Positions 2,228 to 43,921 of a DNA stretch of 64,000 bases are shown here, piece after piece. The translations under genes were made by a program, and so were the position numbers. This DNA is from a plasmid. The stretch is taken from sequence record NZ_CP010801.1; one strand, written 5' to 3'. The notes beneath the pieces were generated by a model that searched no databases, had not been told where the DNA came from, and worked only from the letters and a program-made list of their open reading frames with translations. Within the stretch, counting starts at the first letter, position 1; each line of letters starts with the position of its first letter.

Positions 2228-3173
2228 GCGCGGGCCAGCATGTCCGGTCCCCGCGCTTGTCTGCGGTCCTCAAAACTTTGAGAGCCATGCACACCCGATC
2301 GCCGATACTCGAAGGCTGCACGTCATTCAGGTGCGTACTCGCACTTGCCACCCTCGCACTCGGTTTGGCACTTACCGTCAGTGCGGCAACGCAAAGGCCG
2401 GCCGGGACACTGCCGTTGCGACATGTGGGCGACTATCCGTTACCTGGCGCCACGACGCGCTGGGACTACCTCAGCTTGGACCCGACCAGGTCGCGGCTGT
2501 TTGTCGCCCACCTCGGGGATAGCGCGGTGGTTGTCGTGGACACCAAAACCAAAGGGGTGCTGGCCACGATCAGCAACATCCGTCATGTCCATGGCACGTT
2601 GGCCGTTCCGGAGCTCGACCGTGTGTATGCCTCCGCGACGGGGACCGACGAAATCGTGGCAATCGACGCCGCGACGCTGAGAATCGTCGCCCGTATTCCG
2701 GGAGGCATCTATCCTGACGGCGTCGCCTACGCCCCGGAACTCGGCAAGCTGTATGTTTCCGATGAGACCGGTAACACGGAAACGGTAATTGATGCCCGCA
2801 CCAGCCAGCGAATAACGACGATCGCGCTGGGCGGCGCCGTTGGGAACACGCAGTATGACCCGGTTTCGAAGCACATCCTCGTCAACGTCCAGGGACGGGG
2901 GATCTTGGCCGAGATCGACCCGCGCACCGATCAAGTCGTGGATCGCATCCCATTGCCCGGTGCCGAAGGAAACCATGGGCTGCTGATCGTGCCCAAGCTG
3001 CGACTGGCGTTTATCGCGTGCGAGGGCGACAGTCGCTTGCTGGTGTTGAGCCTGAACACCAGACAGGTGGTTGCAAGCTTCGGGGTTGGACAGACGCCCG
3101 ACGTCGTGGCCTACGACGCGGCGCTCGGATGGTTGTATGTCGCTAGCGAATCCGGCGTCTTGACGATCTTTAA
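2224..3173 (+). pseudogene. YncE-like YVTN beta-propeller protein, 5' part, interrupted by transposon insertion at 3173/3174
   Basis: The ORF reads straight into the 38-bp Tn21-type IR, so the last 12 codons and the stop are IR-encoded. The in-frame continuation is found at 43763. Confidence 0.7.
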
Positions 3174-3211
3174 GGGGTCGTCTCAGAAAACGGAAAATAA
3201 AGCACGCTAAG
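3174..3211 (+). repeat. 38-bp Tn21/Tn501-family terminal inverted repeat (left outer end)
   Basis: GGGG...ACGCTAAG matches the Tn21-family IR consensus; identical to the copy at 43725-43762. Confidence 0.85.
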
Positions 3212-3764
3212 CGTGCGTGGAGGCTGGCACCCAGCGGTACAGCGTCGGAATGGACACGCCGAGGTTCTTGGCCACGTCCTTGGGCGGCACCCCGCTGGCC
3301 AGCAGCTTCTTGGCCGACTCGATCTTGCTGTCGGTCATCTTCGGCTTGCGGCCGCCTTTGCGGCCGAGCTGCTTGGCGACTTCCAGCCCGGCGCGGGTGC
3401 GCTCGACGGTCAGCTCGCGCTCCATTTCGGCAAGGCTCGCCATGACGTGGAAGAAGAACCGCCCGGATGGTGTGCCGGTGTCGATGGAGTCGGTGAGGCT
3501 CCTGAACTGGACACCGTGCTTGTGCAGATCGCCGACCAGATCGACCAGTTGCTTGACCGACCGGCCCAGCCGGTCGAGCTTCCAGACGACCAAAGTATCG
3601 CCTTCGCGCAGCATTTCGAGCGTCTTGGCCAAGCCAGGCCGGTCTGCCCGCGTGCCACTCACCTTGTCCTCGAAGACCTTTTTACATCCGGCCTTGCTCA
3701 AGGCTTCGCGTTGCAGCTCCAGGTTCTGATCCTGCGTCGAGACGCGCGCATAGCCAATCAACAT
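3207..3764 (-). CDS. tnpR: Serine recombinase / resolvase (TnpR-like), stop codon inside the IR
   Basis: N-terminal GYARVSTQDQ catalytic-serine motif and a C-terminal HTH; 185 aa. Confidence 0.85.
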   Translation of the reverse strand: MLIGYARVSTQDQNLELQREALSKAGCKKVFEDKVSGTRADRPGLAKTLEMLREGDTLVVWKLDRLGRSVKQLVDLVGDLHKHGVQFRSLTDSIDTGTPSGRFFFHVMASLAEMERELTVERTRAGLEVAKQLGRKGGRKPKMTDSKIESAKKLLASGVPPKDVAKNLGVSIPTLYRWVPASTHA

Positions 3765-4129
3765 GGCTTGTCTCGCGCCCGGTCGATGCGTTCCTGCATC
3801 GCCTGCATCACTTCTTCGTGGGTGTACGATCTGGCGTTGGCGTCGGTGGCTTGCCGCAGGGCTTCCTCAACCTCGCGCGTCATCCGCTCGTAATCCTCCG
3901 GCCACAGCGCTTGCTCCATGCGCAGCGACGCCTGACCCAGCAGGTGCAGCAGGCTGAACAGCCGCATGTCGTTGGTGGCGACGATGCGCTCCCGAATCTG
4001 CTCCTGAATAGCTTCGCTAGCCCGATGCGCTTGTGGTGTGGCAGTCCCCTCGTAGTCAGCGGGGAATTCCGCTTCCTCGGCAATCCTTGCCCAGGCGCTG
4101 GCCAGCGCCTCGATGGTTGACGTGCTCAT
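3758..4129 (-). CDS. Hypothetical protein, translationally coupled to the resolvase gene
   Basis: Start MSTSTIEAL; overlaps the neighbouring genes by 4-7 nt; no family recognised. Confidence 0.45.
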   Translation of the reverse strand: MSTSTIEALASAWARIAEEAEFPADYEGTATPQAHRASEAIQEQIRERIVATNDMRLFSLLHLLGQASLRMEQALWPEDYERMTREVEEALRQATDANARSYTHEEVMQAMQERIDRARDKPC

Positions 4130-4638
4130 TTCCGCCGCTCCTGTGCTCTTTGGCGAATCAACCGGCCAAGGGGCCTCGACGCGAAAACCAGCAGCATCAC
4201 GCCTATCGGATACCAGGTCGAGAAGACCACCAAGGCATCGAAGGCTGGCCGTCCGGTGTTGGTAGGCAGTACGGCGGTCACAGCCATCAACCCGCCGACC
4301 GTCCAGATGATGCGCCACACGTAGGGCATCACGCGGGGCACGTAGCCGTCATCGAAAGCGGTCTGGTAGTAGCGGCGCAGGCCGCGCTCGGCAAGCGCCT
4401 GGCGCTGCCGCTCCGACAGCGCATCCGTCCGGCCATACCAGCGCCGGAATGGTGGACAGCGCAGCAGCAAAGGGGTGAAGAGGATCATCACCGCCACGAT
4501 CGCGACACCCCACGCCATGACGGCGCCGGCATCGGGCCGCTTGGCGTTCTCGATCACGGGCGCGAAGACGCCCGGAGCACCGATCATCCAGAACAGCGCA
4601 ATGTGCTGATGGAAGGAGAGCTTCATTTGCTCATCCAC
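4126..4638 (-). CDS. Hypothetical membrane protein (about 4 TM segments)
   Basis: Hydrophobic segments; ATGA overlap with the downstream gene. Confidence 0.5.
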   Translation of the reverse strand: MDEQMKLSFHQHIALFWMIGAPGVFAPVIENAKRPDAGAVMAWGVAIVAVMILFTPLLLRCPPFRRWYGRTDALSERQRQALAERGLRRYYQTAFDDGYVPRVMPYVWRIIWTVGGLMAVTAVLPTNTGRPAFDALVVFSTWYPIGVMLLVFASRPLGRLIRQRAQERRK

Positions 4639-4949
4639 TTGCGCAGCAGGCGCTTTTTCAGGGAGGCGCGTTCTTGCGGGTTGCGTCCCTTGTGATTGGC
4701 GATGCGATCCGCCGTGGCGGCCTGGCGCTTGACGGGCCAGTAGGAGCGGCCATCCTTGCCCATCGACCAGACGCTGCTGGCCTGGTTTTCCAGCAGGGGC
4801 AGATGGGCGCTCAGGGCTTCGGGCGACGCGCTGGTCAGCGCCGTGCGCTCACGGGTGCGCCAGCGCTGATGCCAGAGCTTCTTGTCCTCGCGCTCGCTGC
4901 CGCAGGTCGTGTGCCCGACGATGGGTGTTTTGCGGCGGCTGCGGCTCAT
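4623..4949 (-). CDS. Hypothetical basic protein (108 aa)
   Basis: First gene of a co-directional overlapping operon that ends in tnpR. Confidence 0.45.
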   Translation of the reverse strand: MSRSRRKTPIVGHTTCGSEREDKKLWHQRWRTRERTALTSASPEALSAHLPLLENQASSVWSMGKDGRSYWPVKRQAATADRIANHKGRNPQERASLKKRLLRKWMSK

Positions 4950-5203
4950 AACGTAGTGGTCTCCAAGAACATTCAGGACTGATCCCAGGCGTCGATGGTC
5001 AAGACCTGATCGGCAGGACAGGCGGCTACGCGGTCGGGAACTGGATGGTGTTCAGTCTCATGCCGACCCCATTCGATTGATCGCGTCGCTTGCGGCACGC
5101 TGCGACGCAAGGAGGTTTGCGACCTGGTTTAGCAGCCGTGTCCGCTGCATGTCTGTTACCTATCTCCCCGACCGCTCATTGGACCAACTCCAGAGATTGG
5201 GCT

Positions 5204-5578
5204 CTATCGCTCAGCCAATACGAAACCGGCATTGGCTGATGCCACAACCGAGACGAACACAAATGGCTCGGTACCTGTATTTCGCGCCCCGTGCACTTGG
5301 CCCGGTCTTGCCACGGCTATCTCACCTTCCCTGAGGGCACGAACAATCCCATTGCCCTGAAAGTAATCAGCCATTCCCGACAAAACAGTCCACGTGTCTT
5401 GGCCGTGAGGATGAATGTGAGCCGCAATTTCCTGCCCGGGATGGACATGCCAAACCACGATAATTGAGTCTCGGGTTTCAAGCACAACGGAACGAATAGG
5501 CTCGCCTTCGGACGGCTGAACATACTCGGCTACAGAAAATATTCTCGATTCAACAGTCATCGGAGATCCCTCTTTCAC
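5204..5578 (-). CDS. Cupin-domain protein
   Basis: Two His-containing cupin motifs (HVHPGQEIAAHIHPHGQ ... GQVHGARN). Confidence 0.6.
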   Translation of the reverse strand: MKEGSPMTVESRIFSVAEYVQPSEGEPIRSVVLETRDSIIVVWHVHPGQEIAAHIHPHGQDTWTVLSGMADYFQGNGIVRALREGEIAVARPGQVHGARNTGTEPFVFVSVVASANAGFVLAER

Positions 5579-5796
5579 AGTGCCCCCAGACAGGCTGGAT
5601 ATGAGTTCTAACTCGAATTTGAACGGGAGGCTGGTCGTGCGGTCGTGCAGTTGCCGATGAGCGTGTCGGCTGCTGCCTCCTTGCCCACCAGCGAACTCAC
5701 GTCCGTTGCGGCCATCCAGAAGGTCTTGCCCGAGCGCGGCTCATAGGTCGCGGGATCGAACACGCCAGAGGGGCCGAACATCGGCGGCTTGATTGG

Positions 5797-6183
5797 TCAT
5801 GGCTCCATGCCTTTGTCGTTACGGTCTTCATCGTCGGCATCCTGACGCACGGCGGGCAATTGCTGGAGCAACGCCGGCAGCCATTCCTGTACCGTCTCCC
5901 ACACCACATCGAGGTTGATGTCGAAATAGCCGTGAGCCATGCGATTACGCATATTGCGCATGCTGCGCCACGGCACGTCGGCATGCGCCTGGGTGAACTC
6001 GACGTAGCCATCCATCACCTTTGTGGCCGCCTCGCCGATGACGATCAGGCTCATGATGACGGCCTGCTGGGTGCGCTTGTCGGCCAAGAAGTCGTCCTTG
6101 GCCATCCCTTCCACGAAGCTGCGCGCATCGGTTGCGGCCTGCTGAATGTGGTCGAGGTAATCGGGCAGGCGGTTCTCGCTCAT
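5797..6183 (-). CDS. hepT: HepT-like HEPN toxin (DUF86)
   Basis: R-x4-HxY HEPN motif (RNRMAHGY); overlaps the upstream MntA gene by 4 nt. Confidence 0.7.
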   Translation of the reverse strand: MSENRLPDYLDHIQQAATDARSFVEGMAKDDFLADKRTQQAVIMSLIVIGEAATKVMDGYVEFTQAHADVPWRSMRNMRNRMAHGYFDINLDVVWETVQEWLPALLQQLPAVRQDADDEDRNDKGMEP

Positions 6184-6476
6184 ATCGGTTGCGCCTCCGC
6201 GAGCACCTTGGCCCGGAACTTCGGCGGCAGGTCGCCGGGAGTCAGCAGATCGACGTCAACGCCGAGCAGCGATTTCAGTTCTTCTTCCAAATCGCCCAAG
6301 TCCAACAACGTGGCACCGGGCAGCGCATCGACCAACAGGTCGAGGTCGCTGCCATCCCGGTCGGTGCCATGCAGCACCGAGCCGAAGACGCGCGGGTTCG
6401 CGGCGCGAAAGCGGCCTACCGCTTCACGCACTGCGCTTCGCTTCATGTCAAGCACAACAGACGGTCGCATGCGCAT
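6180..6476 (-). CDS. mntA: MntA-like nucleotidyltransferase antitoxin
   Basis: GS-x9-DxD nucleotidyltransferase motif (GSVLHGTDRDGSDLDLLV). Confidence 0.7.
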   Translation of the reverse strand: MRMRPSVVLDMKRSAVREAVGRFRAANPRVFGSVLHGTDRDGSDLDLLVDALPGATLLDLGDLEEELKSLLGVDVDLLTPGDLPPKFRAKVLAEAQPI

Positions 6477-6647
6477 CCTTTCTTATCGAAACTCGTTGAG
6501 ATGATATGCAATCAAGAATAGAATTTCAAGAACTATTTTCGAGAATCGCAATGCCTTGATTCCCGTGCCGCGCCTGTGAATTTCACCCGCTCGACGAGCG
6601 CAACACCGACGCCGCCTACGCCAAGAACCGGCGAATCGACCTCAAAC

Positions 6648-7490
6648 TCACGAACCGCTGAGCGACGCGTCACCGCGCTGCTGCGCCAGCCAGTCGCGCG
6701 GGGCGCAGCCCATGCGCACGCGGAAGGCGCGCGCCAACGCGTTCGGGCTGCCGTAGCCGACGCGGTCGGCCACCACCGCCACCGGACGCCCCTGCTTGAG
6801 CAGGGTGCAACTGACGTTCATCCGCCAGTCGGCCAGATAGTCGCCCGGCGTGACGCCCACCGCGTCTTTGAACGCGGCGGCGAAGCGCGCGCGTGACATG
6901 CCCGCCTGCGCCGCCAGCGCCTCGAGCGACCACGCGGTCTGCGGCGCATCGTGCATGGCGGTTATGGCGCGCGCGAGTTTCGGGTCGGCCAGTCCCGCCA
7001 GCAGTCCGGTGGCGCCAAGCCGCCCATCCATCAGATAACGCAGCAACTGGATCAGTAGCAACTCGCACAAGCGGTCGATGGCGGCCTGCCGACCGCACTG
7101 GTCGCGCTCGGCTTCGGCAAACAGCAGCTCTAGCGTCGGCCCGAGGCCGGGCAAGTCCGCCAGCGGAATCAGCAGCATCGACGGCAAGGCCATGGCCAAC
7201 GGATTGCCCGTCGAAGCGCCCAGATCGACCTCCGCACACAACAGCTCAGCGGTATCGCCGGGGGCGGCGACAAAACGATGCGACGCCACGCGCGGATAAA
7301 ACAGCAGGCTCGGCTCGGTAACCAGCAGATCTTCATGCACGGGCGAACGCGCCGTAATCGGGCCGCGCCGCACCAGATGGATATAGCCATGCGGCGCCGC
7401 GTAATGATGCTGCTCACAGAAGGCGCCGCTGTGAAAAACGCGCGCCGAAAGCGAGTAGTGCCGGAGCAAGCCGGCCAGTCGATCCGCCAT
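6648..7490 (-). CDS. AraC-family transcriptional regulator
   Basis: C-terminal AraC HTH pair; start chosen at the ATG with GGAGAG upstream (an alternative ATG lies at 7502). Confidence 0.7.
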   Translation of the reverse strand: MADRLAGLLRHYSLSARVFHSGAFCEQHHYAAPHGYIHLVRRGPITARSPVHEDLLVTEPSLLFYPRVASHRFVAAPGDTAELLCAEVDLGASTGNPLAMALPSMLLIPLADLPGLGPTLELLFAEAERDQCGRQAAIDRLCELLLIQLLRYLMDGRLGATGLLAGLADPKLARAITAMHDAPQTAWSLEALAAQAGMSRARFAAAFKDAVGVTPGDYLADWRMNVSCTLLKQGRPVAVVADRVGYGSPNALARAFRVRMGCAPRDWLAQQRGDASLSGS

Positions 7491-7607
7491 TCCACTCTCC
7501 ATATAAGACGATAGGTTACGTATTTGATACTTTACGTGCCATATCGTACCAAACAAAGGGCGATCATGCCCACTTGCTCTTGCACCTCACCCACTACGGA
7601 GATAGAC

Positions 7608-8141
7608 ATGACCCAAATCGCCCCCCTGACCATCGACACCGCTGACGCCGCTACCGCTGCCACACTCAAGGCCGTCAAAGCCAAGCTCGGCATGGTGCCG
7701 AACCTGCTCGCCACGCTGGCCCACGCGCCGGCAGCGCTCAACGGCTACCTCGGCCTGTCCGAAACGCTGGGCACCGGCCGCCTGAGTGCCACCCAGCGCG
7801 AGATCGTTGCGCTGGCTGCCGGTCAAGCCAATCGCTGCCAGTACTGCCTGAGCGCACACACCCTGATCGGCAAAGGTGCCGGACTGTCGGCAGAGGCCAT
7901 CGCCGCGGCCCGCACCGGCCAGGCGGCCAACGCACTTGACGATGCAATTGCCGGCTTTGCCCGCGCGCTGGTCGAGCAACGCGGCGTGGTGTCGGCCGAC
8001 GCCATGGCCAACTACCGCCGCGCGGGGCTCGACGACGGCCTGATACTGGAAGTGATCGCCAACATCGCGCTGAACACGCTCACCAACTACACCAACCACA
8101 TCGCCGACACCACGGTGGATTTCCCCGTGGTCGCCGTCTGA
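7608..8141 (+). CDS. AhpD-like / carboxymuconolactone decarboxylase family protein
   Basis: NRCQYCLSAH CxxC-containing AhpD-type motif; GGAGA RBS; divergent from the AraC gene. Confidence 0.7.
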   Translation: MTQIAPLTIDTADAATAATLKAVKAKLGMVPNLLATLAHAPAALNGYLGLSETLGTGRLSATQREIVALAAGQANRCQYCLSAHTLIGKGAGLSAEAIAAARTGQAANALDDAIAGFARALVEQRGVVSADAMANYRRAGLDDGLILEVIANIALNTLTNYTNHIADTTVDFPVVAV

Positions 8142-8252
8142 TCTCCATAGGCATATAAGGAGAACACAACGAAAATCGCACTCACCGGCGCTCTGCTCGC
8201 CAGCGCCCTCGTCCTGCCACTGGCCGTCACGGCCGGCGACTTTTCGCCCTAT

Positions 8253-8717
8253 GTGGACAGCCAGGGCGGCATCAGCCGCCCCACAGACTTCCGCACAAAC
8301 TTCGTCCACCTGGGCTCATATGCGGTGTTGGACGAAAAATCCGCCTCTCGCGGCCTGCACGATGTGTACACCGAAAAGGCCTCGGCCGAGCACTACCGCA
8401 AGACCGGCAAGTTCTTGGACGGCGCCACGCTGGTGAAAGAGATCCGCAAGCTCGAAACCAGCGCCATGACCACTGGCAACCCTGTGGTCTGGGGTTCCGA
8501 TGCGGCCGTGTGGTTCGTGATGGTCAAGGACGCCAAAGGCCGTTTCGCCAGCAACCCCTTGTGGGGCGACGGCTGGGGCTGGGCGCTGTTCAAGGCCGAC
8601 GCCCCCGCCAAGAATGTCGCCGTCAGCTACGAAGCCGACTGCATGGGCTGCCATGTGCCGGCGGCCAAGACCGACCGCGTATTCATCCAGGGCTATCCGA
8701 CACTGACCCAGCACTGA
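8253..8717 (+). CDS. Cytochrome P460-like haem protein (C-terminal CMGCH); the true start is probably upstream
   Basis: CxxCH near the C-terminus. An in-frame signal-peptide-like stretch with AAGGAG lies at 8157, but no canonical start codon is visible there. Confidence 0.55.
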   Translation: MDSQGGISRPTDFRTNFVHLGSYAVLDEKSASRGLHDVYTEKASAEHYRKTGKFLDGATLVKEIRKLETSAMTTGNPVVWGSDAAVWFVMVKDAKGRFASNPLWGDGWGWALFKADAPAKNVAVSYEADCMGCHVPAAKTDRVFIQGYPTLTQH

Positions 8718-8790
8718 CTTGCTGCCGGGTTACGCTTCGCGCAGGATGGCACCTCCGTCCTGCGCGAGCCACCCTTTCCGGAAGCGCGCC

Positions 8791-9391
8791 ATGCCGACAC
8801 TCGACGCCTTTCTGACCGACGTCCGCGCCTGCACGCGCTGCGCACCGCATCTGCCACACGGCGTGCAGCCGGTCTTCCAGTTTCACCCGAGTGCGCCCAT
8901 CCTCATCGCCGGCCAAGCACCGGGGGCCCGGGTCCATGCCTCAGGCGTGCCCTTCGACGACGCCAGCGGCGCGCGTCTGCGCGCCTGGCTGGGCGTGGAC
9001 CGCGACACCTTCTACGACCCTACCCGCATCGCCATTCTGCCCATGGGCTTCTGTTATCCGGGCACCGGCAAAAGCGGTGACCTGCCGCTACGCCCGGAGT
9101 GCGCCCCCCGCCTGGCGCGAAGCCTTCATGCAGCGTTTCGAGCGCCTGTCGCTGGTCATCGTGCTGGGCAGCTACGCCATGGACTACCACCTCGGTACTG
9201 GCAAGACGCCGCTCACCCGGGTGGTCGAAGCCTGGCGCGAGCACTGGCCGCAAGCGTTCCCCCTGCCTCACCCTAGCCCGCGCAACAATCGCTGGCTGGT
9301 GCGCAACCCCTGGTTCCAACAAGACGTGCTGCCCGCGCTGCAAGCACGCGTCCAGGCAGTCCTCACCGCCAACCCCAAGGAAACCCCATGA
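8791..9391 (+). pseudogene. Uracil-DNA glycosylase superfamily (family 4-like) gene with a frameshift in a C6 run near 9105
   Basis: GQAPG and ILPMGFCYPG motifs sit in one frame, and the C-terminal half continues in the ORF at 8891..9391. The shift falls in the gcgccccccgcc homopolymer. Confidence 0.55.
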
Positions 9392-9574
9392 CCGACGACA
9401 CCGCCGCCATTACCGAGCTGCTGCACAAGTACTACGACACCCTGGCCTGGGCGAACGGAGACAGGCACCGGCTTTGGAGCGATGAACGACGGCTTCAGGT
9501 GCGGTAGCTGACGCCTGGGACCTCAATCACCGTATGACCGGGTCGAAAGCGGTCCTTTCTCTGACAACATCGCC

Positions 9575-10406
9575 CTAGCCCGCACTCAACCCCCACAACA
9601 CATCCAGCACATGTTGCGTAGGCCGCTCGACGTCCCCACCACGGTGGGCAATACCAAGTTGACGCCACAATAAGGGCTGTAATGGCCGCATGACGATCCT
9701 GGTATCGGGCAATGGCGTGGAGGCTTCATGCGGCAACAACGTCGCACCATAACCGGCCGCCACTAGGCTTTTGATCGCATCGTTGTAGTTCAGTTGAATA
9801 CGCGGCGTGGGCTGCCGTCCATCACTGGCGAACCACTCCGAGGTCAAGCGCGAAAGCCGAGTAGTTTTGTCATTCAGAATTAATGGCTGGGCGGCCAGCC
9901 AACCGGGGGTCACAACATCCGGGCATTCCCAGCGAGCCGGCAAGAAGGCCATGACCGGGTCCCGCCGCCATGGCTCGATCCGCAATTCCTTCACCGGGGT
10001 CTGTGGCAGCGCGACCAGACCGATCTCCAAAGAGCCCTCGGCAAGCTTCTTCAAAGTTTCCTGCGACGTGAGCACCGCGACCTGCACATCGATAGCGGGA
10101 TGGCGTTGGCCCAACGTCTCCAAAGCTTGCGGCATCAACTGTGCGATGGCCCCTGTGGAGGCACCCAGCCGCACACGCCCGGCCAAGCCCTGCACCTGAC
10201 GCTCCACGTCCTCAAGCGCCTGCTCCGCATCCGCCAACAGGCGCCGCGCGCGCTCCACCAGCGTTTCTCCAATCGCCGAAGGCTGAATGCGCCCACGTGT
10301 GCGCGACAACAGCTTTCCGCCAACCCGCGACTCCAGGTCGGCAATATGCAAACTGACCGTGGGTGGCGCGAGGTGCAGCACACGGGCCGCCTCGGCAAAC
10401 GAACCC
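9575..10406 (-). pseudogene. LysR-family regulator, C-terminal part, disrupted by the Tn4651-like insertion
   Basis: LysR substrate-binding domain. The N-terminal 21 codons are found at 18598-18660, and the IR supplies a fortuitous in-frame start. Confidence 0.7.
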
Positions 10407-10446
10407 GGGGTCATGCCAAGATGAGGCCAGTTCGCTATCATAAGCC
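10407..10446 (+). repeat. Left terminal IR of the Tn4651-like transposon
   Basis: GGGGTCATGCCAAGATGAGGCCAGTTCGCTATCATAAGCC. Confidence 0.7.
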
Positions 10447-10493
10447 TTCAAGTAATGAAGGCGGCGCGAATCATACGTTTCAGTAATTAAGGA

Positions 10494-11531
10494 TCACGGC
10501 GCTTTCGTCCGCTGGCCAACGCGTCCTGGTGTTGCCTTCTTCAACTCGCTCACCAGCCGGCGCGTTGTTTCCGCTTCGGTTTCGGCGCGCTCAGCCCGCC
10601 GTAGCGCCTCCTCCAGCAACGACTGGGTCTGCACCAGTTCTTCGGCCGTTTCACGCTGCCGCGTGGCGGCTCCCTCCGCCTGCTGCCGCACTGCGCCCAG
10701 TTCCATGCGCAACGTGCCGATCGCATTGGCATGTGTCACGGCGCTTTCTTGCATCGCGGTACGCGCGGCCACAACCTGCGCACGTAGCTCATCGGCCAGC
10801 TTGTCGCTTTTCTGACGGGCGGTGCGCTCCTGGTCGATCTCGCGCAACGCACGTTTCTCGTGGCTGGCGGCACGCTCTTCTGCTGCATCCGCGCGGGCCC
10901 GCTCACGATCGAGCTGCGCGCCAAATTCAACCCGAGCCTGTGTGAGCTGCTGTGCCGCCTCGTCCAACTGCCGGCGGGTCTCCTGCAGACGCGCTTCGGT
11001 TGCTGCGTGGCCCTGGCGCTCAGCAGACAGCATTTCTTGAAGCGCGGCAAGCTGCCCGCGCACCGAGTCCAGCTGTGCCTGAATGACCGCGGTCGCTTGT
11101 CGCGCGGTTTCGCTTTCCGCAGTGGCTTGGTCGCGCGCGGCTTCGGCGGCGTGCGCCTGGTGGCGCGCTTCGGCCCGCAGTGCGGCCAGTTCGGTGGCCG
11201 CCGCGGACGAGGCCGCTTGCCAGATGGCCAACACTGCCTCGGCGGCAACCTGCTTCAAGGCCTCGGGGAGATCTGGGTGGTCGATCGTCACCCGTGTTTT
11301 GTCGCGCAGGTCCTGCCAGAACCGGTTCAGCACGTGGGAAGGTGTGCTCATGCTGCCCTTGCGCACCAGACTGTAGAGCTTGTTGGCCGTCGGTGTGACG
11401 CCATAGCGGAAAAACAGCAGCGCGCAGACTTCGCGGTACAGCTCCCGCGTCTCGGTGAAACGGCCGCGCAGCGCCGCGATATCGGCCTGCAGCGCTTGGT
11501 CTTCGGCGGTGGATGCGGGGTCAAGCGTCAT
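10494..11531 (-). CDS. kfrA: KfrA-like DNA-binding coiled-coil protein
   Basis: N-terminal KfrA_N-like segment (TPTANKLYSLVRKGSMSTPSHVLNRFWQDL) followed by a long Ala/Glu/Arg/Gln-rich coiled coil. Confidence 0.6.
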   Translation of the reverse strand: MTLDPASTAEDQALQADIAALRGRFTETRELYREVCALLFFRYGVTPTANKLYSLVRKGSMSTPSHVLNRFWQDLRDKTRVTIDHPDLPEALKQVAAEAVLAIWQAASSAAATELAALRAEARHQAHAAEAARDQATAESETARQATAVIQAQLDSVRGQLAALQEMLSAERQGHAATEARLQETRRQLDEAAQQLTQARVEFGAQLDRERARADAAEERAASHEKRALREIDQERTARQKSDKLADELRAQVVAARTAMQESAVTHANAIGTLRMELGAVRQQAEGAATRQRETAEELVQTQSLLEEALRRAERAETEAETTRRLVSELKKATPGRVGQRTKAP

Positions 11532-11744
11532 GACGGGCCTGGATTTCAGTTCGAATGAGTCAATAATATGCCGTAAACCGCGTGATTTCATAATTTCAAG
11601 TACAAACTTGAGACATAAGTACGCTTCTGTCTAGACTATACTGCGCACTGGCCCCGCACAATACGCCTCGCCCGAGGTGACCTCGCAGGCGGTTGATTGT
11701 CCTACGTTGAATCACTATGATTGGTTTCTAATCGACATGATTGG

Positions 11745-12476: not shown

Positions 12477-12527
12477 CGGCGGCAGGCCCAGCACTCCGCT
12501 GCATTGACCCGATTTCAGGAGGACGCC

Positions 12528-13066: not shown

Positions 13067-13080
13067 CAGGGAGCAAGACC

Positions 13081-13722: not shown

Positions 13723-13756
13723 AACGCCCGCACGCTAGGACGGCGGCCCTGCATCG

Positions 13757-25224: not shown

Positions 25225-25253
25225 GTCCATCAGACCATCAGGCCATCAGGCCA

Positions 25254-30615: not shown

Positions 30616-32319
<1,704 letters not shown>

Positions 32320-32323
32320 TCCC

Positions 32324-34848: not shown

Positions 34849-34958
34849 GGGGTCTCCTCGTTTTCAGTGCAATAAGTGACGGTACGAAAAGCTAGCACTG
34901 GCGCGGAGGTGGTGTTGGTAGATCGTTGATTTCATTGACTTTCCTGTTCACTTTCAAA
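34849..34958 (+). repeat. IS1071 left 110-bp IR
   Basis: Matches the inverted copy at 37943-38052. Confidence 0.7.
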
Positions 34959-34991
34959 TCTGCGATTCGTGGCGTCAAACCGTGGTCGGTT

Positions 34992-37919
34992 TCATCCATT
35001 GGTGCCAGTTATCGATGCATTTGGCCGCGAAGGCAGGATTTGGTCAGCATAGCGGTCAACCGGGAAGCGAAACACACCCCGCAAGTTGATGCTCTCCAGC
35101 CTGGTGGGCGCAATCTTCCCGATCAGTTCCGGTGGAATGACCTGGCGGCGGTTCGACCAGCGATCCAGGACCGCCTGCATCTGTGAGGTATTCCACGCCA
35201 TCACGATGTTGGCCATCAGGCTCAACGCATCGGCCACAGCCTGCATTTCATCGACACGTTTGGCCTGCGCCGGGCTGATCCGGCCGGTATAAATGGCGCG
35301 CTTGAGGGCGTTAACAGCCTCGCCCCGATTGAGCACCCGGCGCAACTCGTTCCTGAAAGCGTCCTTGACAAAGTAGTCAGCCAAAAACGCCGTACGCAGC
35401 AACCGCCCCAATTGCACGCCAGCCTCATAGATTGGATCGCCCTGGGCGGCAGAACCGAACCGCGCAAGAGCTGCCACCGCACTGGCATGTCCGCTCATGA
35501 CCGAGGCTGCCAGGTGCACCAGACTATCCCAATGCTTTTCGATCAAAGCGACGTCGACATTGGCTTCGCACACCGCAGCGATTTCTGCGGGCACTTTGGT
35601 GCCGCGTGGCACAAAGAGGTGGCGCTGTTTGAGTTCCTTCAACCGCGGGCAAAGATCAAAACCAAGCAAACGGGCATGTGACATGGCAAAGTCGGTGTAG
35701 CCATGGGTATCCACAGCAAGCTGGCTGGTCTCCAGCTTTTCTTGGCGGATGACACCTTCAATGGCCACGCCCGCCTGGCGCTCATTGAGCACAAAGGGCT
35801 GCGCATGGAAGATGCCCCACCGGTCTTTTACATGGGAGTAGATTCCAATGGAAGGTGTGTTGCGCCGAGGATCAAGCCGGGCTTGCCACACCCGTTTGGT
35901 GGTCTCCATGGTCATCATGTCAGAAGATGCCAAATCGGACCGCCCCCAGGTGGCGGCAATCGGGTGTCGCTGCATGAATTCCAGCACAGCCTGGCAGGCC
36001 TGGCTCAGACGCCGTTCGTCCCGCGCCCAGCGCATGGCCTGGCGAATGCTGGTGGCAGACAATTGCGGAATCATGCGCGCGCATTCGACCGCAGTCAGAC
36101 TGGTGCCGTGGGCCATGATGCCGGCATAGACCATCAGCAGCTCGTCGGTAGAGCGCGGCTCACGTCCGAGCATGATCCAGCTAAAGCGCACCTGGGCGTC
36201 AACGGCCAGAATCACTTCCGGCAATTGAACCTCACCGATGCGGTGATCCAAAGCCGCGCGCAGCTTGGTCACTTCTGGGTCTTCGTCCTCTGCGGGCAAT
36301 GGCGACAAATGGAGTTCATCATCCACGCGCAGTACGCCACTGCGGGCTGCAGCGGCCACCGCATCGACACCGGCAGTTACTCTGGCCAGCAAAGGCTTCA
36401 AGAAAGTGGCAGCCTTGCTGGGTAACGATAGACGGGCATAGTGTTTCTTGGACTCTGCCTGCCAACGCTCGTCCGTGAAGAACAAGCGCGCACGACCCCG
36501 AAAGCTCAGGCTGTGCTCAATCCAGACCGAGCCATTGCGCACCGCGCGGCGCAGGGCAAACAGGGTGGCCACCTCCAACGCCTGAAACGCCCGTTCCCGG
36601 TCTGGGCTGGAGATCGAAACCTGCCAGATCATTCCCAGACTTGGTGCCACCACTTCAACTGGCAGCTTTCTGGATCCTTTGAGATATAAAGCTTGCAGCT
36701 TGGCAAGGTACTCGATGGCAGGATGCTCGCCGGTGGCCTGCCAGGGCAGCTTTGCAATGGCGACGAGCAACGACCGCACGGGGCGAATTCCATCAATCAA
36801 TCCCTCGCGGACCAGGGAGGCCCTGCTCGGTGGTTTGCGTTTCTGGGTTTCGGTGATCAAGGCTTCAAGACGGGCACGCAACTCAGCATCTGGCACCGCA
36901 CCTTGCGCGCTCAAGGCAACAAGTTCGCCGAGCAGCGTTTTGTACATTGCGGCCCAATTGACGGTAGCGGGGACATCGGCGGCAGCCTGACGCCACAGAT
37001 CGGCGATCCGGCGCTGCACCATAAGGATCAACTGGTCTGTGGTGGTGAACAGGCAATACCGAAGAAAGCATGCGACCTCCACGGTGCGCGCTGGCTCTTT
37101 GATCTTGGCTCCGGCTGAGGGCGGCCTGGAGACAAGTCGGCGCGCGTAGCGGCGCAAGATGAGATCGGGGATGTCTGCCAGGTGCTTATGAACGTCCAGC
37201 GTGTAAAGCAGGTCGATGCGCTCCAGTACCTCGCTGATTTGGCGGGTTGAGTGTTTCGCCGGTGCAGCCCATAGCCAACTCTGCTGGGTTTGTCCATCTG
37301 GGCGCGGCTCTGAAACTGAGGCTCGCCAGCGATCAAGTGTTGCTGGATCAACGCTGGCGGCGATGGCGGTGCCTGTTTCAACTTCAAGCTGGGCAAGTGC
37401 CGCCGCAATCAGTGTCCGAATTGCCCGCTCGTGCACGATCACCAGCTTGTTCTTGTACAGCCATTGACGCGCCCGCACGAGTAGCTGATCGCGGTCGGCG
37501 CAGCGCGCCACTTCGTCGCGCAGTTCACGTACCAGTGAGCGGCGCTGGTGCTCGCTCATCCACTGGAATCCAAGGACCGTGCAGGCTACTTGTTGGTGAT
37601 CGAATAGCGTGCGCCCGCGTTCATACATGGCTCTCAGCGAGGCGACTTCTGGTGCTGCAATGCCAAGCTCGTTGCCAAGGTGGCGCCACAAGGCTACTGG
37701 AATTACCCGAAAGGCACCGAGCAAACGCCCACTCATGCGCAGGAAACCAATATGGAGCGCCAGACCAAGCTTGTGGGAATCACCTCGGCGTGCATTGATT
37801 GCGTCGCGCTCGGCACCATCGAAGGTGAAAAATGCCTTCATCTCGAAGTCGCTGATATCGCGGGGGAGCCCACGCATCCCCAAAAACGTTGTGTGCCAAC
37901 CCTGCATCGTGAACCTCAA
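34992..37919 (-). CDS. tnpA: IS1071 Tn3-family transposase
   Basis: 975-aa Tn3-family TnpA with no associated resolvase. Confidence 0.85.
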   Translation of the reverse strand: MRFTMQGWHTTFLGMRGLPRDISDFEMKAFFTFDGAERDAINARRGDSHKLGLALHIGFLRMSGRLLGAFRVIPVALWRHLGNELGIAAPEVASLRAMYERGRTLFDHQQVACTVLGFQWMSEHQRRSLVRELRDEVARCADRDQLLVRARQWLYKNKLVIVHERAIRTLIAAALAQLEVETGTAIAASVDPATLDRWRASVSEPRPDGQTQQSWLWAAPAKHSTRQISEVLERIDLLYTLDVHKHLADIPDLILRRYARRLVSRPPSAGAKIKEPARTVEVACFLRYCLFTTTDQLILMVQRRIADLWRQAAADVPATVNWAAMYKTLLGELVALSAQGAVPDAELRARLEALITETQKRKPPSRASLVREGLIDGIRPVRSLLVAIAKLPWQATGEHPAIEYLAKLQALYLKGSRKLPVEVVAPSLGMIWQVSISSPDRERAFQALEVATLFALRRAVRNGSVWIEHSLSFRGRARLFFTDERWQAESKKHYARLSLPSKAATFLKPLLARVTAGVDAVAAAARSGVLRVDDELHLSPLPAEDEDPEVTKLRAALDHRIGEVQLPEVILAVDAQVRFSWIMLGREPRSTDELLMVYAGIMAHGTSLTAVECARMIPQLSATSIRQAMRWARDERRLSQACQAVLEFMQRHPIAATWGRSDLASSDMMTMETTKRVWQARLDPRRNTPSIGIYSHVKDRWGIFHAQPFVLNERQAGVAIEGVIRQEKLETSQLAVDTHGYTDFAMSHARLLGFDLCPRLKELKQRHLFVPRGTKVPAEIAAVCEANVDVALIEKHWDSLVHLAASVMSGHASAVAALARFGSAAQGDPIYEAGVQLGRLLRTAFLADYFVKDAFRNELRRVLNRGEAVNALKRAIYTGRISPAQAKRVDEMQAVADALSLMANIVMAWNTSQMQAVLDRWSNRRQVIPPELIGKIAPTRLESINLRGVFRFPVDRYADQILPSRPNASITGTNG

Positions 37920-37942
37920 AAGTGGGAGGCCACCATACCCGT

Positions 37943-38052
37943 TTACAAAGCGAACAGGAAAGTCAATGAAATCAACGGTCTACCCAGACCACCCCCGCGC
38001 CAGTGCTAGCTTTGCGTACCGTCACTTATTGCACTGAAAACGAGGAGACCCC
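37943..38052 (-). repeat. IS1071 right 110-bp IR
   Basis: Inverted copy of 34849-34958. Confidence 0.7.
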
Positions 38053-38532
38053 GTTGAGGGCAGGCAGAATGACCGACTGCTGCCGCAGGTGCTCGATCAA
38101 GGTGCTGGCCAGCACGATGCCCTTGTCGGTCTGCAAGGCCATCTCGGTCAGCAACTGGACGGCCTGCCGGTAGTGGCCCATGGTAAAGGGCTGGAAGCCG
38201 AACACCGTTTGCAGTTCGACCAGGTGCTCGCGCCGGGTCTGCTCCCGCTGCCCGTATTCGTCCCAGCTTTCGACGCTGACCTTGAGCTGGTCGGCGACCA
38301 GTTTCAACAAGGGCGGAAACGGCGGCTCATCGACGCCCAGGATGACACCAGGAAAGCGCAGGTAACAGAGCTGCACGGCGAAGCCCAGCCGGTTGGCCGG
38401 GCCGCGCCGCTGCCGGATGATGGAGAGGTCGGTTTCGCTGAACGTGTAGTGACGGATCAACTCATCCTTGGTGTCCGGCAACGCCAGCAGGCTTTCGCGC
38501 TCGGCGGCGGACAGGATTGAACGACGTGGCAT
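38053..38532 (-). pseudogene. tnpA: Tn21-subfamily tnpA, N-terminal ~160 codons (MPRRSILSAAERESLLALPD...)
   Basis: Canonical Tn21/Tn501 TnpA N-terminus; joins the 32357-34848 part across IS1071. Confidence 0.8.
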
Positions 38533-38534
38533 AT

Positions 38535-39095
38535 TTACTGATCCGTTCTCAAGTATTGATACAGGGTTTCGCGACTGATTCCGAATTCACGAGCCAGCTT
38601 GGTCTTTTGCTCGCCAGCCTCGACACGTTGGCGCAGTTCGGCAATACGCTCAGACGACAGGGATTTCTTCCTGCCACGGTAGGCCCCGCGCTGCTTGGCG
38701 AGCGCGATGCCCTCGCGCTGCCGCTCGCGGATCAAGGCGCGTTCGAACTCGGCGAACGCGCCCATTACCGACAGCATCAGGTTCGCCATCGGCGAGTCCT
38801 CGCCGGTGAAGGTCAAATGCTCCTTAAGGAACTCGATGCGTACGCCGCGCTGGGTGAGGCCCTGCACCAGGCGGCGCAGGTCGTCGAGGTTGCGCGCCAG
38901 ACGATCCATGCTGTGCACCACGACCGTGTCGCCTTCGCGCACGAAGGCGAGCAGCCGTTCCAGTTCGGGCCGCCGTGTGTCCTTGCCCGACGCCTTGTCG
39001 GTGAACACTTTATCCACCTGGATCTGTTCGAGCTGCCGTTCTGGGTTCTGGTCGAAGCTGCTGACGCGGACGTAACCGATGCGCTGACCGTGCAA
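38535..39095 (-). CDS. tnpR: Tn21/Tn501-type resolvase
   Basis: GYVRVSSFDQNPERQ serine-recombinase motif; probable TTG start. Confidence 0.85.
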   Translation of the reverse strand: MHGQRIGYVRVSSFDQNPERQLEQIQVDKVFTDKASGKDTRRPELERLLAFVREGDTVVVHSMDRLARNLDDLRRLVQGLTQRGVRIEFLKEHLTFTGEDSPMANLMLSVMGAFAEFERALIRERQREGIALAKQRGAYRGRKKSLSSERIAELRQRVEAGEQKTKLAREFGISRETLYQYLRTDQ

Positions 39096-39225
39096 GGTAT
39101 CCTCCTGAGGGAAATGTGTCAGGAAGAAATCTATGACCCTTGACGGCGTATGTCAATCAATTCGGAAGGCAACTCTATTCTGACGATTTAGCGCCGGATG
39201 GTCTGACGCCAAGTTAGGGTATGCC
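39096..39225. promoter_or_regulatory. Probable res (resolution) site region between tnpR and urf2
   Basis: Position equivalent to Tn501 res; subsites not individually mapped. Confidence 0.5.
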
Positions 39226-40215
39226 TCAATCTGACGGTAGCGAGTCGCAGGCGTTCGGATCGGCATCGGTTTCGTTCCCTGTCTTGGCACGCGCTTCGAA
39301 GCGTTGATAACACTCCAACCCGCAGAAGTGCTCGACGTATTCCGCGCCTTCCGGGGTGAAGGCGGCATCGAGCGGGATTTCCTTGCAGCACACGCAGCAA
39401 CTGGTGGTGGTCGAGTCACTTGCATTCATGGTGGCACCCCTCCATTGACTGACGAAGACGGCGAATGCCGCCGCCGGCATTGGCTTCGCGAACAGGAAGC
39501 CTTGTCCTGTGTCGCAGTCCGCTTGTCGCAATAGATCAAGACTCGCCGATGTTTCCACGCCTTCAGCCACCACATCCATGCCCAGCCCGTGCGCAAGCTG
39601 AATCACGGTGTGCACGATGGTTTGGTCGCGGCGGTCGTTGGCGAGCCCGGCGACAAACGATTGGTCGATCTTGAGCGTGCTGATTGGGCAGCACTTCAGA
39701 TGTTGCAGACAGGAATACCCCGTCCCGAAGTCATCGGCGGCGAAGCGCACACCGATCTGCCGCGAGGCGTCCAGGGCGGGGAAGATCGCCGGATCACCAA
39801 ACGCGACCGATTCGGTCAGCTCGATTTCGAGATACTCGGCGGGCAACTCGGCATCAGCCAGCACGCCCTTTACCCACCCGTCGAAGTCCGGTCCCACTTG
39901 GCTCGCCGAAACATTGACGGCCAGCCGGAACGGTCGCCATGCCAGCATTCGCCAGTCACGCATCTGGCGGCAGGCTTCGCCCAGCACCCAAGCGCCGATT
40001 TCAGGCATCAGGCCGGACGATTCGACCACGGGCAGGAACTGGCCCGGTGGCAATAGTCCAAGCGTCGGATGACGCCAGCGCAACAGGGCTTCCGCGCCGA
40101 CAATCCCACCACTGCGCAGATCGACGACGGGCTGGTAGTGCAGTTCAAGCTGCCCGCGCTCGACCGCTTGGGCCAGTTCCGGCGTCGTCCATCCATCCGG
40201 CCGGAAAGCGCTCAT
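39226..40215 (-). CDS. urf2: EAL-domain protein (Tn501 urf2 equivalent)
   Basis: EAL phosphodiesterase motifs ([13 protein letters not shown]); ATGA overlap with merE. Confidence 0.75.
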
Positions 40216-40448
40216 TCTCTTTCCCTGAATGCCCGCAACGCCCGCGACAGGGACAGAAGGAACAGGCCGGTCAAACCGAGCGCCGCGATGACCCAATGCT
40301 CGCCGAGGAAAGCACCGGCGGTTGTGCCGGCCAGCACGACAGCGAGGATGGGCAGGTGGCAGGGGCAAGTCAGCACAGCCAGTCCGCCCCACAGGTAGCC
40401 GGTGATCGGTTTGTGCGTCTCGGACGGCAAGCGCTCGGGGTTGTTCAT
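40212..40448 (-). CDS. merE: MerE mercury transporter
   Basis: 78 aa, [18 protein letters not shown]... with a CPC motif. Confidence 0.8.
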
Positions 40449-40810
40449 GGCAGACTCTCCGCGTGCTGTGCCGGCTCGGTCGGCAGGGTGGCCAACTGCA
40501 CTTCCAGATCGGCCAACGCTTCGCGCCGACGCTCGACGAACTGACGCAGCAGGGCAAGCTGCGCGGCCGCTTCGTCGCCGTCCGCCGCATCCAGCGCCCG
40601 GCACAGCCGCGCCAGCGCGTCGAGGCCGATGCCCGCCTCGAAGGCCGCCCGCACGAAGCACAGCCGTTGCAAGGCGGCGTCATCGAACAAGCCGTAGCCG
40701 CCTGGTGTGCACGCCACCGGGCGCAGCAATCCGCGCAGCAGGTAGTCGCGCACGATATGCACGCTCACCCCGGCATCAAGAGCCAGCCGGGACACCGTGT
40801 AGGCGTTCAT
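40445..40810 (-). CDS. merD: MerD co-regulator
   Basis: 121 aa, [29 protein letters not shown] (MerR-like HTH). Confidence 0.8.
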
Positions 40811-40827
40811 TGAACACCTCCTTTTTC

Positions 40828-42525
<1,698 letters not shown>

Positions 42526-42584
42526 TTATCGTTTGTGGCGCCAGACAATGACGTCCGTTGTGCTGCGGTGCCGTTTTCAGTGAC

Positions 42585-42860
42585 TCACTGCTTGACGCTG
42601 GACGGATAGCCCGCGTCTGCGGTTGCCTTGGTCAGCTTCTGCACGCTGGTCTTGGCATCGTCGAAGGTGACGACCGCTTGGCGTGTCTCGAAAGTCACGT
42701 CAACTTTGCTGACGCCTTCGACCTTGGAAATCGCCTTCTTGACAGTGATCGGGCAGGCGGAGCAGGTCATGCCCGGTACGGACAGCGTGACGGTCTGGGT
42801 GGCGGCCCAGACGGGGGCAACAACGGCGGCGAGGGCGAGGGAGGCAAACAGTTTCTTCAT
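42585..42860 (-). CDS. merP: Periplasmic mercury-binding protein
   Basis: 91 aa, signal peptide plus GMTCSAC. Confidence 0.9.
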   Translation of the reverse strand: MKKLFASLALAAVVAPVWAATQTVTLSVPGMTCSACPITVKKAISKVEGVSKVDVTFETRQAVVTFDDAKTSVQKLTKATADAGYPSSVKQ

Positions 42861-42872
42861 GGTGAACTCCGA

Positions 42873-43223
42873 TCAGTAGAAAAATGGCATGACGTAGGGA
42901 AATCCGAGCGCGACCAGAACCAGCGCGGCCACGATCCAGAAAATGAGCTTGTAAGTAGCTCGCACTTGGGGAATCGCGCAGACCTCACCCGGTTTGCAGG
43001 CCGCTGCCTGCCGGTAGATGCGCCGCCAGGCGAAGAACAACGCCACCAGCGCCACGCCGATAAAGATGGGGCGATAGGGTTCCAACACCGCCAAGTTGCC
43101 GATCCAAGCGCCGCTGAACCCCAAGGCGATCAGAACCAACGGCCCGAGGCAGCAAGCCGAGGCGAGGATGGCGGCAAGCCCTCCAGTGAAGAGCGCGCCG
43201 CGCCCGGTTTTTGGTTCAGACAT
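42873..43223 (-). CDS. merT: Mercuric transport protein
   Basis: 116 aa, MSEP..GRGALF..., CC pair in TM1. Confidence 0.85.
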
Positions 43224-43249
43224 GCGCTTGTCCTTTCGAATTGAAATTG

Positions 43250-43292
43250 GATAGCGTAACCTTACTTCCGTACTCATGTACGGAGTCAAGCG
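43250..43292. promoter_or_regulatory. mer operator/promoter: divergent merR / merTPAD promoter with the MerR-binding dyad
   Basis: TTGACTCCGTACATGAGTACGGAAGTAAGGT on the merT strand: -35 TTGACT, 19-bp spacer with dyad TCCGTAC-N4-GTACGGA, -10 TAAGGT. Confidence 0.8.
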
Positions 43293-43294
43293 AT

Positions 43295-43729
43295 ATGGAA
43301 AACAATTTGGAGAACCTGACCATTGGCGTTTTCGCCAAGGCGGCCGGGGTCAATGTGGAGACCATCCGTTTCTATCAGCGCAAGGGCTTGTTGCTGGAGC
43401 CTGACAAGCCCTATGGCAGCATCCGCCGCTATGGCGAGGCGGATGTAACGCGGGTGCGCTTCGTGAAATCAGCCCAGCGGCTGGGCTTCAGCCTGGATGA
43501 GATCGCCGAGCTGCTGCGGCTGGAGGATGGCACCCATTGCGAGGAAGCCAGCAGTCTGGCCGAGCACAAGCTCAAGGACGTGCGCGAGAAAATGGCTGAC
43601 CTGGCGCGCATGGAGGCCGTGCTGTCTGAGTTGGTGTGCGCCTGCCATGCGCGAAGGGGGAACGTTTCCTGCCCGCTGATCGCGTCACTACAGGGTGGAG
43701 CAAGCTTGGCAGGTTCGGCTATGCCTTAG
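43295..43729 (+). CDS. merR: MerR Hg(II)-responsive regulator
   Basis: 144 aa, [33 protein letters not shown]; C-terminal Cys residues; stop inside the IR. Confidence 0.9.
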
Positions 43730-43762
43730 CGTGCTTTATTTTCCGTTTTCTGAGACGACCCC
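43725..43762 (-). repeat. 38-bp IR (mer end), right outer end of the composite element
   Basis: Reverse complement is identical to the 3174-3211 copy. Confidence 0.85.
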
Positions 43763-43921
43763 TTTAAGGTTGAGGCAGCCGGAGTGGCCAAGATCGGCGA
43801 AGGTTGGGTGGGGCCGAATGCGCACAGCTTGGCGATCGATCCCGCCACGCATGAGATTTATCTTCCCCTGCCGGACATCGACCATCATCCGGTGATGCGT
43901 GTCTTGAAGCCCGACACCTGA
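43763..43921 (+). pseudogene. YncE-like beta-propeller protein, 3' part (52 codons) downstream of the insertion
   Basis: Reads FKVEAAGVAKIGEGWVGPNAHSLAIDPATHEIYLPLPDIDHHPVMRVLKPDT* in the same frame as the 2224 ORF once the TTTAA duplication is accounted for. Confidence 0.7.

Follow-up and report, generated by a model that had tools for sequence, protein, structure and literature searches.

The transposon Tn1721, with its basic element Tn1722, belongs to the Tn21 subgroup and carries three 38-bp inverted repeats (IRs), of which its transposase can use the inner or the outer one, and its insertion is marked by a 5-bp target-site duplication (TSD). Another large transposon, Tn4653 on plasmid pWW0, contains a second one, Tn4651. 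Here we describe a Ralstonia element that resembles both: a 40.6-kb insertion that splits a YncE-family gene within a stretch of 64,000 nucleotides of the plasmid record NZ_CP010801.1 (the window). No description of this element was found in the literature searched. Two further groups of elements bear on it. ISPa38/TnPa38, from Pseudomonas aeruginosa, is a Tn3-family transposon of 6,455 bp with tnpA, tnpR, six passenger genes and IRs of 38/39 bp (PMC12466754, PMC3735179), and cointegrates mediated by it have been documented (PMC12466754). For the TIME-derived elements it was shown experimentally that Tn3-family 38-bp IR pairs mobilise the DNA between them in trans, with 5-6-bp duplications in A+T-rich DNA (PMC4133298).

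The YncE-family gene of the window is interrupted by a 40.6-kb insertion with a 5-bp duplication, and excision restores the natural, full-length gene, identical to the annotated protein P0121 ("MULTISPECIES: YncE family protein [Ralstonia]"). The features that define the insertion are as follows.

2287-3173, plus strand: YncE-family gene, 5' part (residues 1-295 and two bases of codon 296)
3169-3173: TTTAA, left TSD copy
3174-3211, plus strand: left terminal IR, 38 bp, Tn21-type (ISPa38 resolvase-end IR); its junction with tnpR recurs elsewhere
43725-43762, minus strand: right terminal IR, 38 bp (mer-end IR), matching the left IR
43763-43767: TTTAA, right TSD copy, flanking the right IR
43768-43921, plus strand: YncE-family gene, 3' part (last base of codon 296 to stop codon)

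An earlier note, made from the sequence alone, had called the outer IRs (GGGGTCGTCTCAGAAAACGGAAAATAAAGCACGCTAAG) identical and placed direct TTTAA repeats beside them; the IRs are indeed reverse complements at 38/38 positions, and both repeats were present on re-examination. A third copy of the IR, at 32324-32361, has the orientation of the left one and a single mismatch (T to C at position 8), and the window has no further copy even when 9 mismatches are allowed. When 3174-43767 is removed in silico, the two gene parts rejoin in frame, with codon K296 assembled as AA/G, into an open reading frame (ORF) of 346 amino acids that ends in ...VLKPDT and the stop codon. Its product matches P0121 at 346/346 residues, and this intact allele is indexed in 243 blocks of the genome collection. 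Full-length YncE-family homologues, 60-76% identical in the alignment, run without gaps across the junction (...IFK/VEAAG...), which places the rejoined gene in the YncE/YVTN beta-propeller family.

The uninterrupted gene, which the earlier note had proposed to look for in related genomes, is found at three loci (L009, L011 and L012), to which the excised flanks (1-3173 plus 43768-49457, 8,863 bp) are identical at 100.000%, with 0 mismatches and no gaps. Each of these loci has a single TTTAA, and all share with the window flanks the gene order chrB-chrA-SOD-...-MFS-DUF1529-YncE-EamA-integrase-tnpA. A 5-bp match would arise by chance with a probability of about 1/1024, and of less for a pentamer of A and T only in DNA of 64% G+C; since the empty sites exist, a chance match is excluded. 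The interrupted allele, P0122 (307 amino acids, reading into the IR), is indexed in 136 blocks, and those of its contigs that are of sufficient length have the left junction and the interior as in the window. A further empty site (L008 10946-10953, in GCA_045764145.1) contains an extra A (TTTAAAGG), by which the gene call P0001 is shortened to 318 amino acids; this base is either a homopolymer sequencing error or a real frameshift.

In its ends the element is of the Tn21 type. The terminal IRs (GGGG...ACGCTAAG) recur in ISPa38 and in copies of the mercury-resistance (mer) transposon elsewhere, and the TSD lies in A+T-rich DNA. Inside, a partial ISPa38 is followed by about 26 kb of cargo and by a complete mer transposon, so that IRs stand at 3174 (plus strand), 32324 (plus strand) and 43725 (minus strand), as in Tn1721, and the TSD goes with the outer pair. 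The term "composite" used in the earlier note does not hold in the strict sense of two flanking insertion sequences (ISs): on the left stands a 3.4-kb portion of ISPa38, on the right another transposon, the complete mer one, and apart from the IRs a self-comparison shows no similarity between the two. An intact DDE transposase is likewise lacking, because the cognate tnpA is split by IS1071 at 34849-38052, and the other Tn3-family TnpA in the insert belongs to a Tn4651-type element whose IRs differ. With its sole cognate tnpA broken, the element is now non-autonomous; it is a mosaic three-IR Tn21-subgroup transposon of known parts. The same note had proposed mobility by a Tn501-like TnpA, or by one supplied in trans, acting on the outer IRs. 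A Tn21-subgroup element bounded by the outer pair is what we find, but the only cognate tnpA is now the one split by IS1071, and the label "Tn501-like" fits the mer gene order merRTPADE-urf2 alone, the IRs being Tn21-type.

As in Tn1721, a basic transposon is joined to an extension, and the third IR, at the far end of this extension, points the same way as the internal one. In Tn1721, however, a duplicated tnpA fragment accompanies the third IR, and the extension consists of the 5-kb tet region. The element described here has the resolvase end of another transposon, ISPa38, as its third IR; its extension measures about 29 kb, and its transposase is now broken by IS1071. With Tn4653 the element shares the plan of a large Tn21/Tn1721-type transposon of catabolic genes in which a Tn4651-type transposon is nested, but its cargo is another one; the nested transposon, 8.2 kb long, is free of catabolic genes, and a working transposase is missing from the outer element. 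The non-autonomous TIME-derived elements likewise consist of DNA between two 38-bp IRs that depends on a transposase in trans, but they measure 0.26-3.9 kb, compared with the 40.6 kb seen here, which include a once-autonomous transposon (PMC4133298).

That transposon, module E (32324-43762), is a complete Tn21-subgroup mercury transposon with the order IR-tnpA-tnpR-res-urf2-merEDAPT-merR-IR:

32324-32361, plus strand: internal IR, the native tnpA-end IR of E, with C at position 8 (same variant in pAKD29)
32357-34848, minus strand: E tnpA, 3' part, about 808 codons (by local alignment)
34849-38052, minus strand: IS1071, 3,204 bp, IRs of about 106 bp, tnpA at 34992-37919, TSD GTTGA at 34844-34848 and 38053-38057
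38053-38532, minus strand: E tnpA, 5' part, which joins 32357-34848 into a 988-amino-acid TnpA
38535-39095, minus strand: E tnpR, intact resolvase ORF
39096-39225, minus strand: putative res region, by position
39226-40215, minus strand: urf2/DUF3330
40215-40448, minus strand: merE
40448-40810, minus strand: merD
40831-42513, minus strand: merA
42588-42860, minus strand: merP
42873-43223, minus strand: merT
43295-43729, plus strand: merR

When IS1071 and one copy of GTTGA are removed in silico, the restored Tn3-family TnpA scores 1317 bits against NF033527 (the NCBIfam Tn3-transposase model), and the IS1071 target at 34849 is uninterrupted in a Pandoraea IncP-1 plasmid; the insertion of IS1071 is therefore a secondary event. 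Its length, its 106-bp IR match and its TSD are those of IS1071, and it is 99.9% identical to plasmid-annotated copies. Our first guess had been that IS1071 already lay in E before E reached Ralstonia, as IncP-1 copies of E carry IS1071 too. This was dropped, for in those copies IS1071 sits at the equivalent of window position 32590, and the site at 34849 is uninterrupted. The putative res, assigned by its position, is near-identical (one mismatch) to other copies, and there are two intact resolvase ORFs in the insert (3207-3764 and 38535-39095).

Without IS1071, E is 99.9% identical to the Tn21-subgroup merRTPADE-urf2 transposons on IncP-1 (beta) plasmids and about 96.7% identical to the copy on pMOL28 of C. 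metallidurans CH34; it differs from the IncP-1 copies in having IS1071 at 34849, which was not seen there, and from Tn21-subgroup mer transposons in having no flanking TSD of its own. Its first 427 bp, including the IR, are 100% identical in replicons of C. metallidurans CH34 and in many others. An independent copy of E in pAKD29 has a TSD of its own, TGCCT, and carries C at position 8 of the tnpA end and T at that of the mer end. The one-base difference of the internal IR, which the earlier note had adduced for use of the outer pair, is thus present in aligned copies but is no evidence for such use, C being native to E (pAKD29, CH34). Immediately to the left of the internal IR stands ATCCC and not TTTAA, from which it follows that E alone did not make the TTTAA duplication. 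The 31 bp to the left of this IR had appeared to be shared with IncP-1 plasmids; the candidate was rejected as a weak similarity produced by alignment extension, pAKD29 having its own TSD.

The tnpA genes of the ISPa38 type and the E type are 91-93% identical. In pRp12D0 of R. pickettii the mer transposon carries a tnpA of the ISPa38 type, 93% identical to the 3' part in the window. When this plasmid is compared with window 38052-49457, there are 35 mismatches, 34/35 of them within 38062-38432 and the other at 39149, so that divergence gives way to near-identity at about 38432 (L003 26256-26640). This pattern indicates that tnpA was exchanged between ISPa38 and the mer transposon by homologous recombination.

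At the opposite end lies module A (3207-6574, minus strand), the resolvase half of ISPa38/TnPa38 without tnpA, as delimited by comparison with annotated plasmids and by local alignments:

3207-3764, minus strand: serine resolvase
3758-4949, minus strand: three hypothetical genes
5204-5560, minus strand: cupin
5608-5781, minus strand: small ORF
5797-6183, minus strand: HepT/DUF86
6180-6470, minus strand: MNT nucleotidyltransferase

The stop codon of the resolvase gene lies inside the left IR, and this junction of IR and tnpR is found again in pYS1, in a P. rhodesiae plasmid and in pHN39-SIM. Window 3174-6574 is 99.9-100% identical to the IR-resolvase-passenger half of ISPa38/TnPa38 in these three plasmids. 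The element differs in that only the IR, tnpR and the passenger genes are kept, and the tnpA half with the second IR is missing, its place being taken from 6574/6575 onwards by a segment of Pseudomonas-plasmid DNA. The left end without a transposase that the earlier note had remarked upon is therefore this resolvase half.

The Pseudomonas segment (module B), assigned by comparison with annotated plasmids, is interrupted in turn by module C, a Tn4651-type transposon:

6575-10406: module B1, Pseudomonas-plasmid segment
6648-7490, minus strand: AraC
7608-8141, plus strand: carboxymuconolactone decarboxylase (CMD)
8328-8717, plus strand: cytochrome P460
9575-10414, minus strand: LysR gene, cut by the Tn4651-type element
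10407-18597, minus strand: module C, Tn4651-type transposon, 8,191 bp, IRs of about 54 bp
10494-11531, minus strand: KfrA-like gene
12528-13066, minus strand: RelE/ParE toxin-antitoxin pair
13757-14950, plus strand: tyrosine recombinase (Phage_integrase domain)
15116-15451, minus strand: tnpC (NF041282, 132 bits, cutoff 100)
15444-18443, minus strand: tnpA (NF033527, 780 bits)
18603-23459, plus strand: module B2, from the remainder of the LysR gene onward
18734-19699, plus strand: argC
20683-21309, plus strand: DNA methyltransferase
21334-22362, plus strand: IS30-family transposase
22399-23430, plus strand: methyl-accepting chemotaxis (mcp) gene, 3' part (HAMP and MCPsignal)

Module B (6575-10406 plus 18603-23459) matches Pseudomonas megaplasmids at 98-100% identity. 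The final 410 bp of its mcp stretch (23050-23459) recur in more than 2,000 plasmids at an identity of at least 99%, which rises to 100% in the enterobacterial ones at the top of the list; the mcp gene presumably resembles that of Tn1721/Tn1722, and the homology ends 29 bp past the stop codon, at the start of module D. Module C has the features of the Tn4651 subgroup, namely TnpA, TnpC, a tyrosine recombinase, long IRs and a 5-bp TSD (AACCC, at 10402-10406 and 18598-18602), and its LysR target is uninterrupted in pHN39-SIM.

In pHN39-SIM (L007 21401-21681) module B opens with TGTCGTTTTCAGAAGACGGCTGCAC, which we take to be a terminal repeat of the Tn402/Tn5053 type; 277 bp of this stretch are deleted in the window, where TGT alone is kept (6572-6577). 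This suggests that a res-targeting element once entered ISPa38 between its passenger operon and tnpA, and the junction of A and B would be a relic of such an insertion followed by the 277-bp deletion. A resolvase-mediated fusion of res with res at this junction (6574/6575) was also considered and rejected: its two sides share no similarity, and the presumed Tn402/Tn5053-type IR of pHN39-SIM, which stands at the very junction point, speaks against it as well.

Module D (23460-32323), a haloacid module that is 99.9% identical to the IncP-1 plasmid pYS1, fills the space up to E:

23503-25224, plus strand: DUF3701 tyrosine integrase
25254-25871, minus strand: LysE
26119-27453, plus strand: ClC channel
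27540-28226, minus strand: haloacid dehalogenase type II
28333-29889, minus strand: acetate/cation symporter
29886-30278, minus strand: DUF485
30616-32319, plus strand: sigma-54 activator

In pYS1 this module runs unbroken through ...GACTGATCCC/GCTCGG, the point at which E sits in the window, and on alignment the pYS1 sequence looks like the unoccupied target of E. Two other sequences, L020 (1-3552) and L021, have the junction of D and E, with D joined at window position 24166 to another left context; the association of D with E is thus older than the window's junction of B and D. In L020 the left context matches plasmid regions from Paraburkholderia and Cupriavidus in which two or three integrase genes are annotated side by side; L020 also has IS1071 adjoining E at another position (32912).

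We consider it very likely that the three-IR Tn21-subgroup transposon inserted as one 40.6-kb unit into the TTTAA of the YncE-family gene, which was itself transposon cargo. From the IRs, the TSDs, the empty sites and the uninterrupted pYS1 sequence, all of which are read directly, we infer that the transposon moved as a whole, where its transposase came from and in which order the events took place, as follows. The unit would have been assembled elsewhere, on a donor replicon in which module D lay downstream of an ISPa38 remnant that had retained its resolvase-end IR. There E would have landed at ...ATCCC beside D, and the right-hand copy of ATCCC would later have been left behind in the donor. 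A Tn21-type TnpA may then have treated the span between the ISPa38 IR and the mer-end IR of E as one transposon, as it could because the two IRs are identical and inverted. Movement would have followed the replicative route of the Tn3 family, with formation of a cointegrate, its resolution by TnpR at the res of E and a 5-bp duplication in A+T-rich DNA. The transposase could have been E's own TnpA before it was split by IS1071, or one of the ISPa38/Tn21 type acting in trans. The Tn4651-type element and IS1071 are simple nested insertions that may have been made before or after the jump, so that the unit would have measured 29-40.6 kb at the time of its move.

Several points weigh against this account. 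The element is found at one insertion site only, all other instances sharing the same TTTAA junctions, and not at two or more sites with different TSDs; its movement as a unit is thus strongly inferred from one TSD and was not seen twice. Exact-match scans of genome contigs (for the left and the D-E junctions) and of metagenome contigs (for the left and right junctions) gave no matches, and a donor replicon with the same IR-to-IR unit was not found. Within the window there is no intact Tn21-type tnpA, and the res at which a cointegrate would be resolved is a putative one, assigned by position.

Alternatively, the arrangement could have been built up in place. E alone would have inserted into the gene with the TSD TTTAA and transposed replicatively into a pYS1-like plasmid beside D, the replicons would have fused, and a deletion between the tnpA-end IR of the left E and the directly repeated ISPa38 IR would have removed the first copy of E and most of the plasmid. 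The D-E junction (ATCCC/IR) and the right junction (IR/TTTAA) are as such a cointegrate would give them, ISPa38-mediated cointegrates are on record (PMC12466754), and replicons do recombine, the two gene halves lying on different replicons in Ralstonia sp. RRA.1. This history, however, takes three events where one suffices, and its E-alone site, TTTAA/GGGGTCGCC...CCGGTTGC, with the tnpA end of E at the left junction, was not found. It also requires recombination within a 38-bp repeat, and because the left IR has T at position 8, the crossover would have to fall in the first 7 bp. The bases at this position are in fact native to their neighbours throughout (T beside the ISPa38 resolvase, C beside tnpA, T beside merR), which argues against recombination between IRs as the origin of the arrangement; the need for a crossover in the outermost 7 bp makes in-place histories unlikely, be it by deletion or by a flip between IRs. 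We therefore regard the build-up in place as improbable.

Even less probable, in our view, is that the first insertion was that of a complete ISPa38 derivative whose tnpA end lay to the right, and that this end was later turned into a mer end by an inversion or a recombination involving Tn21-type IRs or tnpA genes. It is true that the two types of tnpA recombine, as in pRp12D0, but tnpA now reads away from the right end, so that the sequence would have had to flip in place through the 38-bp IRs, and the right IR would be expected to have kept its original outer bases, which is at odds with position-8 bases that are native to each neighbour. No intermediate was seen. This order of events predicts the right junction ...tnpA-IR/TTTAAGGTTGAGG; the exact-match scan for the right junction of the mer type returned no contigs at all and so does not speak to that prediction.

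Least probable of all is that the arrangement was wrongly assembled, as a chimera, or that it arose by recent recombination through the 8.2-kb Tn4651-type repeat. This could be suspected because RRA.1 (L002, L004) carries window 1-18597 on a plasmid of 342 kb and 10407-49457 on a replicon of 1.98 Mb, because pRp12D0 (L001/L003) has 1-18599 and 43763-49457 with the junctions 84 kb apart and inverted, and because the breakpoints of both lie at the Tn4651-type element. Neither case, however, would lead one to expect matching TSDs both for that element and for the outer IRs, which are found in the window's arrangement only, or collinear, in-frame gene halves. The copies of the Tn4651-type element are flanked by AACCC/AACCC in the window and by AACCC/AATAG, AACCC/TTCTA and CAATA/AACCC in pRp12D0 and RRA.1; since matching flanks occur in the window alone, the window has the original order. 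The arrangements in pRp12D0 and RRA.1 are, to judge by these flanks, products of recombination between Tn4651-type copies.

It is conceivable, as a tentative and rather doubtful extension, that the ISPa38 resolvase half (the IR, tnpR and the HepT/MNT toxin-antitoxin pair) acts as a portable "end module" which, once stranded in the neighbourhood of any Tn21-type transposon, turns the tens of kilobases in between into a transposon mobilisable in trans, and that the 40.6-kb unit is still mobile in Ralstonia strains with an intact ISPa38-type tnpA, such as that of pRp12D0. Haloacid-dehalogenase and mercury genes would then spread together by way of this end module.

The split gene belongs to a block of chromate-resistance, YncE and EamA genes, towards the right end of which two recombination genes are found:

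45041-46339: tyrosine recombinase of the chromate transposon, near its right end at 49457
46365-49340: Tn3-family TnpA of the chromate transposon, 991 amino acids, near the same end

Homology of the flank to other genomes stops exactly at 49457, at the terminal ...GATTACCCC, and six different sequences follow this end in six genomic contexts. Because a homology end with varied continuations stands beside the 991-amino-acid TnpA, the block is a larger Tn3-family transposon. Beyond it, at 51628-63395, there are genes for type IV secretion and conjugation (a VirB11-like ATPase, TrbL/VirB6, VirB8, TrbI/VirB10 and a CagX-like protein), which suggest that the replicon is a plasmid or an integrative conjugative element; 51628-63395 had no match at high identity among PLSDB plasmids.

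Taken together, these findings reveal no new mechanism, the parts being already known, and their main value is that they record, with unusual clarity, transpositions nested at several levels and later recombination between replicons. Four levels of nesting are seen, IS1071 lying in a mer transposon, this in the 40.6-kb unit, and the unit in a chromate-resistance transposon, with intact duplications and empty sites for three of the insertions (the 40.6-kb unit, the Tn4651-type element and IS1071). The locus is a textbook case, taken from nature, of the way in which large transposons with several traits are put together by Tn3-family elements, and the split gene is the scar by which an element can be recognised that was later torn apart at Tn4651-type copies in two other Ralstonia strains. 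Ralstonia often contaminates water systems and reagents, so that the linkage of mercury, haloacid and chromate determinants on nested mobile DNA is also practically useful to know.

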